Positions 9,551 through 41,434 of a stretch of 59,896 nucleotides of DNA are shown here, piece by piece. Source of the DNA: Eubacteriales bacterium (lineage in GTDB: Bacteria > Bacillota > Clostridia > Oscillospirales > QAMX01); the NCBI GenBank assembly GCA_045639125.1, contig JAZUCL010000018.1:1-59896 (forward strand), read 5' to 3'. The notes beneath the pieces were generated by a model, which saw nothing but the letters and a program-made list of their open reading frames with translations, had not been told where the DNA came from and did not search any database. The stretch's first letter is position 1. Each line of letters opens with the position of its first letter. Position numbers and translations under genes: made by a program.

Positions 9551-10534
9551 TATTTTCATATCGCCGTTGACAGCATTTACAAGCATTGTAGACAGACGAG
9601 TTGCATCACTTATTGATGCAATTTCCGTACCACTATGGCGATGACGTATTGCTACACCAACACTTGCGGCATATACACCGCCACGACTTGCCTGAATACC
9701 TGTCAAATCACTATTTCCTGCAAGGCGTACATCACGCTGTACTTGGTCATGGGCATAAAATTCAAGATAATTTAGTAGTTTGGGATTGGAAATGGTACTT
9801 TTATTACGCACCCTAACAACTGCTCCTCCACCAAGTTTCACATCACTTTTTTTGACTGCATCAGGTAAATCGCCACTGTCAGTCATATCCACTGCAATAC
9901 CAATCTCAGCATCTATTTCATACGAGGCACTACTTGCACCTCTAACTCCCACCTCGTGCTGTACGGAAAATACGAAGTACAAATCGTTGTCCGATTGACA
10001 TTTTGACAAAACATCAATGAGTACAGCACAACCAAGACGATTATCAAGGTACGGAGAGAAAATTCTATCACCTGAAAGGAATGTATCGCCGGAAAGTACG
10101 GCAGTATCGCCACGGTTGACTTTTTCCTTCGCCTCTGATACGTTGACAGCACCGATGTCGATATACAGATTGTGCATTGCAATATCTTTTGGCTCTACAC
10201 CCTCGTCACAGCCGATAACACCACGTACACCATTGGCAAATACTACATCTTTGCCAACAAGAGTCCACAGACTTTGCGTGCCAAGCACTCCAATACGAAG
10301 AACTCCGTTTTCTTCAAAATAAGTTACAATAAATCCTATTGTATCGCAATGTGCCATAATCATCACACGCTTACCGCTACCTGACTTTCTCACAATAAGA
10401 TTGCCCATTGCTGTCTTTGTAATTTCCTGTGCATAAGGCTTACAAAGTTCGGCAATTTTCGCTGTTATCGCAATTTCGCTTCCACTTGTACTAACCGGGG
10501 TAGCAAGTTCTTTTACAAGTTCAAATATCGTCAT
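9548..10534 (-). CDS. M42 family metallopeptidase (glutamyl aminopeptidase/FrvX-like), paralog 1
   Basis: M42 architecture with metal-binding segments (MAHCDTIGF, DNRLGC, QHEVGVRGA). Confidence 0.8.
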   Translation of the reverse strand: MTIFELVKELATPVSTSGSEIAITAKIAELCKPYAQEITKTAMGNLIVRKSGSGKRVMIMAHCDTIGFIVTYFEENGVLRIGVLGTQSLWTLVGKDVVFANGVRGVIGCDEGVEPKDIAMHNLYIDIGAVNVSEAKEKVNRGDTAVLSGDTFLSGDRIFSPYLDNRLGCAVLIDVLSKCQSDNDLYFVFSVQHEVGVRGASSASYEIDAEIGIAVDMTDSGDLPDAVKKSDVKLGGGAVVRVRNKSTISNPKLLNYLEFYAHDQVQRDVRLAGNSDLTGIQASRGGVYAASVGVAIRHRHSGTEIASISDATRLSTMLVNAVNGDMKI

Positions 10535-10552
10535 TATAATTACCTCTTTAAT

Positions 10553-11572
10553 TTACAATGAAAACTTTGCAAGGAATGTCTTTATAAACCGCAGCATATT
10601 GTCCATATCCTCAATTTTTGCTACTGATGAGGCAGAATGGATATATCTCACAGCACATGATACTGCCATAACTTTTGCACCGCCTGCATTTTTACTTATT
10701 ATTCCTGCGTCTGTACCGCCCGCAACTATGCTTTTTGTCTGATACGGGATATTTTCACTCTCGCAGATTGAAAATGCCTGCTGCCACATATCCTTTGTGT
10801 AAATTGTACCGCCATCAATTATAGGTATAACAGGCCCTGCACCAAGTTGACACGCCTTTTTTGCACCTTTTACATTTGCAAGGTCTGCTGCTGTTGTAGT
10901 TTCCAGTACGATTGCTACGTCAGGTTTAATGCGATATGATGCAACACTTGCTCCTCGCAATCCAGCCTCCTCTTGCACAGTAAATACAAACCACGTATCT
11001 ATACTTGTGCCTTCTTCAATTAGTTTCATCATCAAAGCACAGCCTATACGGTCGTCCAATGCCTTTGCCTTCAAAAATCCTTCTCCATACTCGTTAGGCT
11101 CGCTGTCAAATGCAACATAATCTCCAAGCGTTACGTATTTTTCTGCTTCTTCACGAGATGTGGCACCTATGTCAATGTACATATCCTCAAATGGCGGAAG
11201 TTTCTTTCGCTCCTCACCTTTTGTCAGATGTACCGCCTTTATTCCAATAACACCTTTAGTCTTCTTTTCACCGATGCGAACAGGACACGCAAGTACAACT
11301 TTCGGATCAATTCCTCCTGCTGTTACAAAGCGGAGAAAACCATCGTCGGTAATATCACTGACAAGAAAACCCACCTCGTCCATGTGGGCAGTAATCATTA
11401 CTGTCTTTCCACAGTTCTTCTTACCCTTTTTGAACACATAAAGGTTTCCCAATACATCTACGTACAGTTCATCAGCATTTGGCTCGACAACACTGCGAAT
11501 ATATGTGCGAACTTTATTTTCATAACTGCTTACACCGTCAATGGTACACAGCCTTTTTACTGTTTCAAGCAT
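10553..11572 (-). CDS. M42 family metallopeptidase, paralog 2
   Basis: Carries TAHMDEVGF, DDRIGC and QEEAGLRGA. Confidence 0.8.
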   Translation of the reverse strand: MLETVKRLCTIDGVSSYENKVRTYIRSVVEPNADELYVDVLGNLYVFKKGKKNCGKTVMITAHMDEVGFLVSDITDDGFLRFVTAGGIDPKVVLACPVRIGEKKTKGVIGIKAVHLTKGEERKKLPPFEDMYIDIGATSREEAEKYVTLGDYVAFDSEPNEYGEGFLKAKALDDRIGCALMMKLIEEGTSIDTWFVFTVQEEAGLRGASVASYRIKPDVAIVLETTTAADLANVKGAKKACQLGAGPVIPIIDGGTIYTKDMWQQAFSICESENIPYQTKSIVAGGTDAGIISKNAGGAKVMAVSCAVRYIHSASSVAKIEDMDNMLRFIKTFLAKFSL

Positions 11573-39106: not shown

Positions 39107-39222
39107 AAAATAGGACTTACCGTAACTTCGGTAAGTCCTATTATCTTTCATACTATTTGCCGTTCATAATTTCGGAATAATATCCATAATCTTATCGTGA
39201 CAGCCACCACAGCCTGTCGAGC
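39107..39222. repeat. Direct repeat copy 1 (116 bp): duplicated 3' end plus terminator hairpin of the BFD-like gene, with a 1-nt deletion, so it is a non-coding pseudo-fragment
   Basis: Identical to 40436-40552 except for one missing A in the GGAAATAA run. Diverges sharply after ...CCTGTCGAGC. Confidence 0.85.
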
Positions 39223-39345
39223 CTCGGCATTTTTATCAAGTTGATATTATCAGTTTAATATTGAGATTGTAAGAAAAACTCCCCTGTCCCCAAACTGTTA
39301 AAGAGATTTATTTGTATAGTTAAAAATACTGCTCAATGGCAGTCT

Positions 39346-39594
39346 TTAATCATTATCAACATCTACTAATTTACTTACTGGAACACCTAAAACCTTGCTT
39401 ATCTTAAACAGAGATTTCAAGGAAGGAACATAGGGAGCAGAAGGACCTTCTAACTGTGAAATAAAGTTCAGGGACATACCACTACTTTCACTTAACTGTT
39501 CTTGTGTCATATTTGCTAGTCTTCTATAATAACCAACTTTCAACCCAACTTTTATTATAAACATTTGATATTCTTTTTCATTATAATAGTTCAT
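39346..39594 (-). CDS. Small XRE-family HTH protein within the repeat-flanked AT-rich cassette
   Basis: HTH_3-like QEQLSESSGMSLNFISQLE. AT-rich codon usage compared with the flanks. Confidence 0.55.
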   Translation of the reverse strand: MNYYNEKEYQMFIIKVGLKVGYYRRLANMTQEQLSESSGMSLNFISQLEGPSAPYVPSLKSLFKISKVLGVPVSKLVDVDND

Positions 39595-39728
39595 AAATTA
39601 CACCTTTTTCAATAAATACTCTCTGTATGTAATTATAAACTATTTACAAATAAGATATTATTATGTATAATAAAATAAAACTTCTGTGTCAAGGAAGTTT
39701 TTTAATAAATATTATTTTAGGAGTAATT

Positions 39729-40205
39729 ATGCAAGAGATTAAAAGGTGTTGTTTTTGCGGACACAGTGATATCACTTATGATACAGAAACAAGAGATAAA
39801 ATAAAAGCAATAGCAGAAGATTTGATTTTAAACCATAAAGTAAAAGAATTTTGGGTTGGGCACTATGGCACATTTGATGGTTGTTGTTCTTCTGTTATAA
39901 GAGAACTGCAAAAGACTTATGCAGATATAAAATTAGAATTGGTTATACCATACATGACCAAAGGTATCAATGAGTATAGGGAATTATACTATAAAGATTA
40001 TGATAATATTCTTATAGCAGATATACCCTTAAATACTCCCCAAAAGTTTCAAATTATAAAAGGAAATGAATACGTTGTAGACAACTGTGATTTTGTCATC
40101 TGCTACATTGAAAGATACTATGGGGGAGCATACAGAACCTTCACTTATGCAAGAAGAAGAAAAAGAGAAATTTTTAATTTATCTCCAAAAGCAATAACAG
40201 ATTAA
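39729..40205 (+). CDS. YpsA/DUF1273-like SLOG-superfamily protein (about 158 aa), hypothetical
   Basis: Begins MQEIKRCCFCGHS. The strand-helix-strand pattern (CCFCGH ... IKAIAEDLI ... EFWVGHYGTFDGCCSSVIREL ... LELVIPYM) parallels YpsA (ISGYK ... IKKAI ... EWFIFGGQLGFEYWA ... IAAIFPF). The ORF-track N-terminal extension is rejected. Confidence 0.45.
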   Translation: MQEIKRCCFCGHSDITYDTETRDKIKAIAEDLILNHKVKEFWVGHYGTFDGCCSSVIRELQKTYADIKLELVIPYMTKGINEYRELYYKDYDNILIADIPLNTPQKFQIIKGNEYVVDNCDFVICYIERYYGGAYRTFTYARRRKREIFNLSPKAITD

Positions 40206-40435
40206 TCATTAATTGTTTAAAAGTCAGTGGCTTTTTATAATTTGACAGGAACAGTTTTGGGACGGGCAGTTTTTGTGCATTTAATTACATGTTTGAATTA
40301 TTTATTGACTTTCATAATTCTTAAAGGCTTTCAAAAGATAAACTGCCAGTTTTGGCAAAAATCTTAAAAATTAAGCGTCACAAACTTCAAATTTTGCCAT
40401 TATGGTTTATACGGTTCACAAGATAAAAAGTGCAC

Positions 40436-40470
40436 AAAATAGGACTTACCGTAACTTCGGTAAGTCCTAT
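40436..40470 (-). terminator. Intrinsic terminator of the rbr/BFD-like operon (inside repeat copy 2; also present in copy 1)
   Basis: Perfect hairpin aggacttaccg-taac-ttcggtaagtcct with a U-rich tract on the minus strand. Confidence 0.65.
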
Positions 40471-40552
40471 TATCTTTCATACTATTTGCCGTTCATAATT
40501 TCGGAAATAATATCCATAATCTTATCGTGACAGCCACCACAGCCTGTCGAGC
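40436..40552. repeat. Direct repeat copy 2 (117 bp): overlaps the intact 3' end of the BFD-like gene and its terminator hairpin (aggacttaccg-taac-ttcggtaagtcct)
   Basis: See copy 1. This copy carries the complete hairpin and the intact coding 3' end. Confidence 0.85.
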
Positions 40553-40688
40553 AGGAGGTCATAAGTTGTACCTGTGCAAATTCACTCTCAACATCTGAAA
40601 ATAAGGTATGCTGTTTAAGTGCATTCTCAATCGCTCCAAATGTTACGTTTTTGCACTTGCAAATCACTTGGTTTGTTTCATACTTCAT
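40482..40688 (-). CDS. BFD-like [2Fe-2S]-binding domain protein (68 aa)
   Basis: Cys pattern CKCK ... CSTGCGGC typical of bacterioferritin-associated-ferredoxin-like domains. Immediately downstream of the rubrerythrin gene. Confidence 0.6.
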   Translation of the reverse strand: MKYETNQVICKCKNVTFGAIENALKQHTLFSDVESEFAQVQLMTSCSTGCGGCHDKIMDIISEIMNGK

Positions 40689-40693
40689 GGCAA

Positions 40694-41281
40694 TTACCCA
40701 AAATATCTCTTTAAGAGACCCTCTAAACCACGACCGTGTCTTGCCTCGTCACGAGCCATCTCATGCACGGTATCATGGATTGCGTCAAGACCATTCTTCT
40801 TAGCACAAAGAGCAAGGTCAAACTTACCCTGAGTAGCACCGTACTCACAATCAACACGCCAAGCCAAATTGGACTTTGTGCAAGCCTTCATGTTGGACTC
40901 AAGATCCTCACCAAGAAGTTCTGCAAACTTAGCAGCATGCTCTGCCTCCTCGTATGCTGCCTTCTCCCAGTACAGGCCAATCTCAGGATAGCCTTCACGA
41001 TGTGCAATACGTGCCATGCAAAGATACATACCAACTTCTGCACACTCACCGTTAAAGTTTGCCATCAACTGCTCAAAGATATATGCCTTATCTTCAGCAG
41101 AAATGTCAGGGTTATTCTTTACTGTCTTTGCATAAACGCCATACTCATGCTCTGCAGCAAGTTTCATCTCGCCCTCGGCAACGGTGAACTTTGAACCGGG
41201 AGCCTTACATGTGGGGCAAAACTCAGGAGCAGCATCACCTGTGTGAACATAACCACATACCGGACACACAAACTTTTTCAT
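40694..41281 (-). CDS. rbr: Reverse rubrerythrin (N-terminal rubredoxin-like domain plus ferritin-like diiron domain)
   Basis: CPVCG...CPTCK at the N-terminus, then diiron ligand helices (ExxH motifs: [20 protein letters not shown]). Start at MKKFVC with a GGAGGA RBS. Confidence 0.8.
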
Positions 41282-41434
41282 AATTATTTCCTCCATACAT
41301 TAACTTTAATTCTGATTTATTTTTCTCTTATCAGTAATCACTACTGTTTACAGTTATAAGTATACTCGATTCTAAAAGAAAACGCAATGCAATTATTCTA
41401 CAAAATTTTATGTTGTTTGCAGTCGTAAAATGTG

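Follow-up and report, generated by a model that had tools for sequence, protein, structure and literature searches.

Phage 21 and e14, which integrate at the 3' end of icd in Escherichia coli, bring a replacement for the gene end that they displace, as set out in Campbell's model. Derivatives of the integrative conjugative elements (ICEs) ICESt1 and ICESt3 at the fda 3' end of Streptococcus thermophilus, known as cis-mobilizable elements (CIMEs), were reportedly described by Pavlovic et al. in 2004 and Bellanger et al. in 2011. A CIME has kept attL and attR and has lost its recombination genes (PMC5704250). Here we describe a 1.2-kb cassette in a 59,896-nt stretch of clostridial DNA (contig JAZUCL010000018.1, hereafter the window), which carries a divergent pair of genes for an XRE-family regulator and a SLOG protein and lies between direct copies of the 3' end of the BFD-like ferredoxin gene bfd. 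We consider it probable that the cassette is a miniaturised CIME-like remnant of a tyrosine-integrase element of about 10.7 kb, situated at a secondary, core-like site in bfd, with replacement of the bfd 3' end.

The repeats that bound the cassette are of attL/attR type, the interior holds XRE and SLOG only, with no genes for integration, excision or transfer, and it appears to be derived by deletion from an integrative element. A tyrosine integrase is encoded by the relatives of the cassette and not in the window. With the ICESt1 and ICESt3 CIMEs the locus shares repeats that include the 3' end of a protein gene, loss of integrase and excisionase, internal deletion, and retention of few accessory genes. 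It differs from them in being only 1.2 kb long with two genes, in its long (116 nt) and perfect repeat, and in having the secondary target bfd rather than rbr, the rubrerythrin gene that its relatives use; the parent family moreover corresponds to no known ICE, and conjugation genes were not observed. As with phage 21 and e14, the target stays intact by means of a substitute 3' end, the displaced end lies at the far junction, and the duplication is of the order of 100 nt, whereas the targets here are rbr and bfd, the element is not a phage (it has no structural genes), the window has lost the integrase, and the two copies are identical rather than diverged. The unit itself is an ordinary, routine genomic scar that fits the known CIME and 3'-end-replacement models. 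It gives an example of secondary-site use with a captured replacement end, a proposed route of target-gene change.

A repeat-flanked cassette in bfd

A first-pass annotation, made from the sequence without database searches, had described direct repeats of about 116 bp at 39107-39222 and 40436-40552, with a single-nucleotide deletion in the upstream copy, and a repeat search of the window and an alignment of the copies confirmed this (116 nt on the left, 117 nt on the right). Positions 39107-39177 equal 40436-40506 (71 nt, 100%) and 39176-39222 equal 40506-40552 (47 nt, 100%), the spacing changing from 1329 to 1330 nt where the left copy is short of one A (GGAATAA vs GGAAATAA), and there are no substitutions between the copies. 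When the copies were aligned with 150 nt of flank on each side, the identity broke off sharply at both ends. A 29-nt piece of the repeat occurs twice in the window at up to 3 mismatches, against 0.00 expected, so this is a local repeat and not the dispersed, widespread genomic family that the annotation had named as its refutation. The repeat was also correctly read as the bfd 3' end with its terminator hairpin: the right copy contains the last 71 nt of an intact 68-aa open reading frame (ORF) and a hairpin with a 14-bp stem at 40438-40471, and the left copy contains the last 70 nt of the coding sequence. Their identity may reflect either recent integration or gene conversion that keeps the copies alike. 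A weak likeness over 35 nt to the left of each copy was dismissed, from the flank alignment, as AT-rich alignment noise.

The features of the locus are given below; L numbers denote the 112 comparison loci that we fetched, which for the element family come from gut and rumen Clostridia metagenomes.

39107-39222, minus strand: left (distal) repeat copy, an attL-type junction, with the displaced bfd 3' fragment (39153-39222, one A deleted) and a copy of the terminator hairpin (39109-39142)
39215-39225, minus strand: GAGGCTCGACA, match to the family core, straddling the left repeat boundary with GAG on the element side and GCTCGACA on the bfd side
39223-39278, no strand: spacer of about 56 nt from the core to the left arm motif, at the same position as the spacer of about 60 nt in L093 and L111, its sequence not homologous to theirs
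39279-39299, no strand: left G/C-rich double arm-like motif CTCCCCTGTCCCCAAACTGTT, so called by analogy with the GCCCACC repeats at the left ends of L093 and L111, and containing the 39286-39299 arm AACAGTTTKGGGAC of a 14-nt inverted pair
39300-39323, plus strand: remnant (last 7 codons, KEIYLYS, and stop) of the elements' 332-362-aa gene, at the putative left deletion junction, with TTAAAGA microhomology at 39297-39303
39346-39594, minus strand: XRE-family helix-turn-helix (HTH) regulator, 82 aa (HTH_3, 37.5 bits, cut-off 23), with a terminator-like hairpin at 39328-39343
39595-39728, no strand: divergent control region, conserved in L081, with a promoter-like site on the plus strand upstream of SLOG (39643-39671, TTTACA-17-TATAAT)
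39729-40205, plus strand: predicted 158-aa single-domain SLOG protein of the YpsA clade
40242-40277, no strand: putative right deletion junction with TTGACA microhomology at 40242-47, then right arm-like motif AACAGTTTTGGGACGGGCAGTTTTTGTG
40278-40435, no strand: element-side DNA from the right arm to the replacement bfd 3' end, for which no homologue was found
40436-40552, minus strand: right (proximal) repeat copy, an attR-type junction, brought in by the element on the integrase model, with the functional bfd 3' end (40482-40552) and the terminator hairpin (40438-40471)
40482-40688, minus strand: BFD-like [2Fe-2S] gene bfd, the target, an intact 68-aa ORF (Pfam Fer2_BFD, 47.3 bits, cut-off 26)
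40694-41296, minus strand: rubrerythrin gene rbr, 200 aa, upstream of bfd, the usual target of the family

The divergent pair of a small XRE gene and a gene of about 158 aa had likewise been recognised in the first reading, and is borne out as an 82-aa HTH_3 protein on the minus strand and a 158-aa ORF on the plus strand. Its remark that the interior is markedly AT-rich stands against the rbr and bfd coding sequences (GC 0.24-0.31 vs 0.42-0.47) and falls against nearby host intergenic DNA, which is also AT-rich (0.28-0.30); because of this similarity only the contrast with coding sequence is informative. The XRE and SLOG genes are both intact, and in comparison with the copies in full-length elements have dN/dS of 0.016-0.14 at dS of 0.4-0.8; the XRE protein is 97.6% identical to the L097 copy (dN/dS 0.016-0.06). 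By these ratios both genes appear to be under purifying selection. Repression of the divergent SLOG gene is a probable function of the XRE protein.

The displaced bfd fragment at 39153-39222, with its one-base deletion, would read ...DIISEL and stop, compared with ...DIISEIMNGK and stop in the intact gene, a difference that may have been present already in the host allele whose end was displaced, and need not reflect decay after the insertion. In annotation it should be entered as a displaced gene end and not as a pseudogene from gene decay. The T-run on the minus strand after the left terminator copy (39109-39142) is better than that after intact bfd. This left copy separates the XRE gene from the promoter region of a 1912-aa SLH/vWA gene, and the insertion therefore preserves the transcriptional insulation of that gene.

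Junctions of full-length elements and of the window

The closest homologues of the SLOG protein (83-87% identical) each sit in an element of about 10 kb, and at the DNA level window positions 39300-40205 match the element backbone of L081 and L097 with 86% identity. Complete elements are about 10.7 kb long and have a conserved order: variable small genes or restriction-modification cargo, integrase, an excisionase-like HTH_17 gene, genes for proteins of 346 aa and of 332-362 aa (the latter integrase-like), XRE, SLOG, and genes for proteins of 141 aa and of 190 aa (the latter DnaD-like). The integrase is of the tyrosine type and has 401-406 aa (PHROG 1, E 5e-55). When 14 element proteins were compared by tblastn with the 60-kb window, only XRE and SLOG were found; no integrase was detected in the window by tblastn with that of L093, nor by Pfam among 20 mid-size ORFs, all of them housekeeping genes.

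In 4/4 host contexts the element lies directly downstream of the rubrerythrin gene, and two loci, L093 and L111, contain both element ends. In L093 the intact rbr reads ...GAC GAG GCT CGA CAC GGC (...DEARHG), followed by KAFEGFLNRFFK, a stop and its own terminator, while GAGGCTCGTCATGG, at the opposite element end and 10.7 kb away, is joined to the displaced rbr 3' end codons, directly after which comes the host ferritin gene. In L111 the intact rbr ends ...EARHG KAFQGFLDRMFK and stop, and the distal junction joins GAAGCTCGCCACGG to the displaced rbr 3' end codons, followed by a 68-aa bfd gene; as the displaced end adjoins bfd, the L111 host has an rbr-bfd operon like that in the window. The C-terminus that the elements supply to rbr is KAF(E/Q)GFL(N/D)R(F/M)FK and stop. 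The junctions of these relatives show that the family elements recombine inside the E-A-R-H-G codons of rbr, supply a substitute C-terminus with a terminator, and displace the original. The displaced rbr 3' ends outside the elements lie at 1400-1442 in L093 and at about 780-835 in L111.

Six junctions gave the core consensus GARGCTCGNCAYGG, and the form of the rbr target that bears the core is GAGGCTCGACACGG; the exact core GARGCTCGNCAYGG is present in 7/45 unrelated rbr genes. Inside the element ends, about 60 nt from the distal core, are G/C-rich repeats (GGTGGGC/GCCCACC in L093, L097 and L111, TTGGGAA/TTCCCAA in L081), which by analogy we read as arm-type integrase sites. A 26-bp perfect direct repeat in L093, TTTGCCCACCAACTGCCCACCTTTTC, was considered as the att core and rejected, since the displaced rbr 3' fragments lie outside it; it is better explained as arm-type repeats.

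A search of the 59,896 nt of the window for GARGCTCGNCA returned 1 match (0.13 expected), at 39215-39225, exactly over the left repeat boundary. In gene orientation this junction reads ...aaaaatgcc GAG|GCTCGACAGG ctgtggtggc..., where the bar is the repeat boundary and bfd is to the right, and the GCTCGACA part is provided by the C-S-T-G codons of bfd, which read TGCTCGACAGG and resemble the family core. Among 80 unrelated bfd genes GCTCGNCA was found at the C-S-T-G site in none. The E-A-R-H-G site of the window rbr (40734-40747, minus strand) reads GAGGCAAGACACGG, with GCA-AGA for the Ala-Arg codons in place of GCT-CGN, and this rbr is therefore without the core. The window, L093 and L111 have in common a layout of a G/C-rich double motif, a spacer of 53-60 nt, the core and a displaced gene end, and the combination of a distal displaced fragment with an intact target gene is seen for bfd in the window and for rbr in L093 and L111. 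On this comparison the window junction displays the same architecture as its relatives, but in the next gene of the operon, bfd. The proposal of the first-pass annotation, that the repeats are the attL/attR scar of a decayed or minimal integrative element, is supported by the integrase-bearing relatives, by the L093 and L111 architecture, by the core on the boundary, and by the failure to detect an integrase.

A literature search found no paper naming rubrerythrin as an integration target, and this family of integrative elements of gut and rumen Clostridia, which hits the conserved E-A-R-H-G metal-site codons of rbr, is apparently undescribed. An integrase beside bfd in L022 was set aside, as it lies on the 5' side in an unrelated arrangement. 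The elements contain an internal direct repeat of about 180 nt, up to 94% identical (L093 2947-3126 vs 10511-10691; L097 3221-3400 vs 10510-10689), of which one copy stands just after the SLOG gene and which is missing from the window; recombination between its copies would remove the half of the element that carries the integrase. The variable left end of L097 (341-2603) carries a GmrSD_N/HNH gene and an EcoRI-type methylase, so the defence cargo sits there, away from XRE-SLOG. Two related contigs end at module borders, L085 (position 3) exactly at the homologue of window position 39300 and L087 (position 1) inside the XRE-SLOG spacer, which suggests population-level variation at these borders.

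Origin of the cassette and competing explanations

An insertion of the rbr type would truncate bfd, though here bfd is intact and has its own terminator, so the integrating copy would have carried 117 bp of the bfd 3' end and terminator as a replacement segment. Most likely an element that had earlier inserted at the secondary site in a conspecific would have acquired that end when it excised aberrantly, and would have brought it in on re-integration, a capture route that we infer from the accepted models for phages and islands that target gene ends. The abrupt outer limit of the repeat immediately behind the terminator (40435/40436) is consistent with a capture junction. Integration would then give two identical copies and leave bfd intact, and two internal deletions, before or after integration, would have removed all but the arm-like end motifs and XRE-SLOG. 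Homology to the full-length elements starts at 39300 and stops near 40250, immediately beyond the promoter region that precedes the 141-aa gene, and both limits abut the arm motifs. The TTAAAGA of the left junction comes behind the last arm motif in L093 and ahead of the gene remnant in the window. For the right junction, L097 has TTGACA downstream of SLOG and again shortly before its right arm, and the window has one copy. From these positions we infer that the structure arose from a full-length ancestor by two microhomology-mediated deletions.

The two junction sequences of the insertion are CCTGTCGAGCCTCGGCATTTTTATCAAG and GATAAAAAGTGCACAAAATAGGACTTACC. The reconstructed attP would be …GTGCAC + 117 bp + CTCGGCATTTTT…, with GCTCGACA as the predicted crossover; the predicted empty site is ...CATCATAT + one 117-bp repeat + AGGAGGTCATAAG..., and the predicted circular junction is ...AAGATAAAAAGTGCAC + 117 bp + CTCGGCATTTTTATCAAG.... 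The remnant would not be mobile by itself, and excision would be expected only with a cognate integrase, supplied in trans or in cis by an incoming relative.

Several observations weigh against this account. In the searchable collections we found no empty-site allele, circular junction or second copy of the mini-element, and the species is itself missing from these collections, the best homologues being 89% identical for rbr and 70% for bfd (protein). No full-length element with GGGGAC-type arms or a bfd replacement end was recovered, and the ancestor is therefore a reconstruction. The stretches 39223-39278 and 40278-40435 have no detectable homologue, the right arm gives a weak alignment to L097 (score 30), the microhomologies, at 5-7 nt, are short and lie in AT-rich DNA, and the SLOG ORF scores below the gathering cut-off of Pfam YpsA (PF06908/DUF1273; 21.9 bits, E 1.9e-4, cut-off 27.7). 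Finally, the perfect identity over 117 bp would also permit RecA-dependent integration, with the same product, so that integrase action at the bfd site is probable rather than proven. Related searches gave 0 matches in metagenome contigs for the gapped empty-site pattern and for a 22-mer of the terminator hairpin, and exact look-ups of the window BFD, SLOG, XRE and rubrerythrin proteins found none on record. The locus of P0092, the 89% rbr homologue, was ruled out as an empty site, being a syntenic flippase-rbr locus without bfd.

The RecA route would be a Campbell-type event, in which a circle with XRE-SLOG and the 117-bp bfd 3' end entered by a single crossover with no integrase, and we regard it as unlikely. 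Identity over 116 nt is long enough for homologous recombination and the window has no detected integrase, but the gene-side end of the identity coincides with the family core, which the element-side GAG completes, and arm-like motifs lie at the family-typical distance from that core. Such a circle would still need an integrative-element origin, and the explanation differs from integrase-mediated entry in the last step only. An artefact, either a mis-join of strain variants in assembly or a local tandem duplication of the bfd 3' region, is very improbable: although the window may come from a metagenome assembly and the related contigs L085 and L087 break at module borders, both junctions are internally consistent, the interior is foreign with clear mobile-element homologues, the left junction holds the family core, and the same architecture is present in independent assemblies of relatives.

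The 14-nt inverted pair raises another explanation, namely that XRE-SLOG is a small mobile or invertible cassette bounded by these repeats that landed in an unrelated att-flanked shell. Exact matches to the motif occur in the window only at 39286-39299 and 40250-40263 (AACAGTTTTGGGAC), immediately outside the homologous XRE-SLOG block, and coincide with the points where similarity to L081 and L097 ends; in L104-L107 inverted repeats of about 255 bp bracket a SLOG gene of 58% identity and its small ribbon-helix-helix (RHH) partner, and SLOG homologues also occur in an unrelated serine-recombinase element. We nevertheless judge this decidedly unlikely. The 14-mer was found in none of the 112 fetched loci, and no such repeats surround XRE-SLOG in L081, L097 or the other full-length elements; the motifs resemble the arm repeats at the ends of L093, L111 and L081 in composition, orientation and distance to the core, and the retention of 24 nt of the upstream gene and of the promoter of the downstream gene fits deletion better than capture. 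As to the motifs themselves, the right one, AACAGTTTTGGGACGGGCAGTTTTTGTG, shows weak similarity to the first of the GGTGGGCA repeats that lie at the right ends of L097 and L111, and a sensitive blastn of the element-side DNA (39223-39299 and 40251-40435) against the full-length elements gave nothing significant.

A further possibility, which we hold to be doubtful, is that the 1.2-kb unit is a functional, non-autonomous miniature integrative element, the ends of which (the arm motifs and the 117-bp bfd replacement) are still recognised by the integrase of a full-length relative, with the XRE-repressed SLOG gene as its sole cargo and a minimal module needed by the elements or selected by hosts. 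In that case SLOG might act as a brake on growth or division, serve an addiction-type function or, like DprA, process DNA. If true, this would explain the recurring stand-alone, repeat-flanked regulator-SLOG pairs such as those in L104-L107, and the locus would be a snapshot of a target switch from rbr to bfd by capture of a new 3' end.

The SLOG protein and its partners

YpsA, the founder of the YpsA clade of the SLOG superfamily, is described as a nucleotide- or ligand-binding protein that has a prophage paralogue, YoqJ, and blocks cell division when overproduced (PMC6459960). The resemblance of the 158-aa protein to YpsA, noted at first from the sequence pattern, was upheld at the level of the fold, though not by the Pfam score given above; most of its homologues have a precomputed PF06908 match. 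A profile of 32 homologues compared with PDB sequences had a sole match, Bacillus subtilis YpsA (2NX2, E 0.077). An AlphaFold (AF2) model built on the homologue alignment (pLDDT 92.6, pTM 0.88) had 2NX2 as its top Foldseek match in the PDB (E 1.4e-7, TM 0.71), followed by DprA, ShosA and ThsA, all SLOG folds. As judged from this model, the protein has a SLOG Rossmann-like fold closest to YpsA.

Residues G44, Y46, G47, F49, D50 and G132-G133-A134..T137 are invariant in the family, and an N-terminal CCF[AC]GHS motif is nearly so. D50 aligns near an acidic residue of YpsA, with the spacing GxxD, as against the GxD signature of PMC6459960. The window protein shares with B. subtilis YpsA the single-domain Rossmann-like fold and the conserved glycine-rich GGA..T and G..FD motifs, but it is only 16% identical, has the CCF[AC]GHS N-terminus, and is encoded on mobile elements beside a small repressor; no coupling to gpsB was found, the SLOG neighbours being XRE, bfd and element genes in all contexts examined. 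ThsA (Thoeris) and ShosA (Shosta) resemble it in their SLOG domains, which are among the structural matches (8zva, E 1.2e-5; 8wc0, E 3e-3). They couple SLOG to effector domains or partners (SIR2 or TM; ShosT), whereas the window protein is SLOG only, with XRE as its sole partner.

The suggestion in the first-pass annotation that the cassette carries a defence or toxin-like cargo received no direct support. The SLOG protein had no PADLOC match at E<=0.1 and no PHROGs match, and XRE matched only generic HTH/control-protein models in PADLOC. SLOG holds a fixed position in the conserved backbone of 5 full-length variants while the cargo at the left end varies, which argues for an element function and not a swappable cargo. 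From the structural model and this position we consider it a YpsA-clade nucleotide- or ligand-binding protein of the element backbone; that it helps to control growth or division, or processes DNA at some stage of the element life cycle, would be a guess.

The wider SLOG family is large: at E<=1e-3 it has 6499 cluster representatives, and a threshold of E<=1e-10 leaves 2122. The SLOG profile found 4 loci in viral contigs, 0 of them of this element family, and phage and plasmid collections held only distant homologues (<=38% identical), one of them annotated as 'SLOG family protein'. In the contexts examined SLOG always has a small DNA-binding partner. In the window, L081 and L097 this is an 82-aa XRE encoded divergently, in L091, L093 and L111 an XRE of 107-112 aa encoded in the same direction, and in the stand-alone L104-L107 module a 64-aa RHH-like protein, again divergent. 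This constant small regulator suggests that tight repression matters. The YpsA-like subfamily is widespread and backbone-encoded on mobile elements, and beside its small repressor it outlasts decay of the element.

In the stand-alone module the inverted repeats of about 255 bp (L104 9394-9649 and 10512-10763, also in L105-L107) are 92-99% complementary and flank a 166-aa, 58%-identical SLOG homologue divergent to the 64-aa RHH-like gene. The module lies just upstream of hrcA-grpE-dnaK, in two different left-hand contexts, and the pair may be an invertible or mobile two-gene module. In L100 (3483-17293) a 65%-identical SLOG homologue is part of an unrelated element with three serine recombinases and with D5_N primase-like, Amidoligase_2 and GATase genes.

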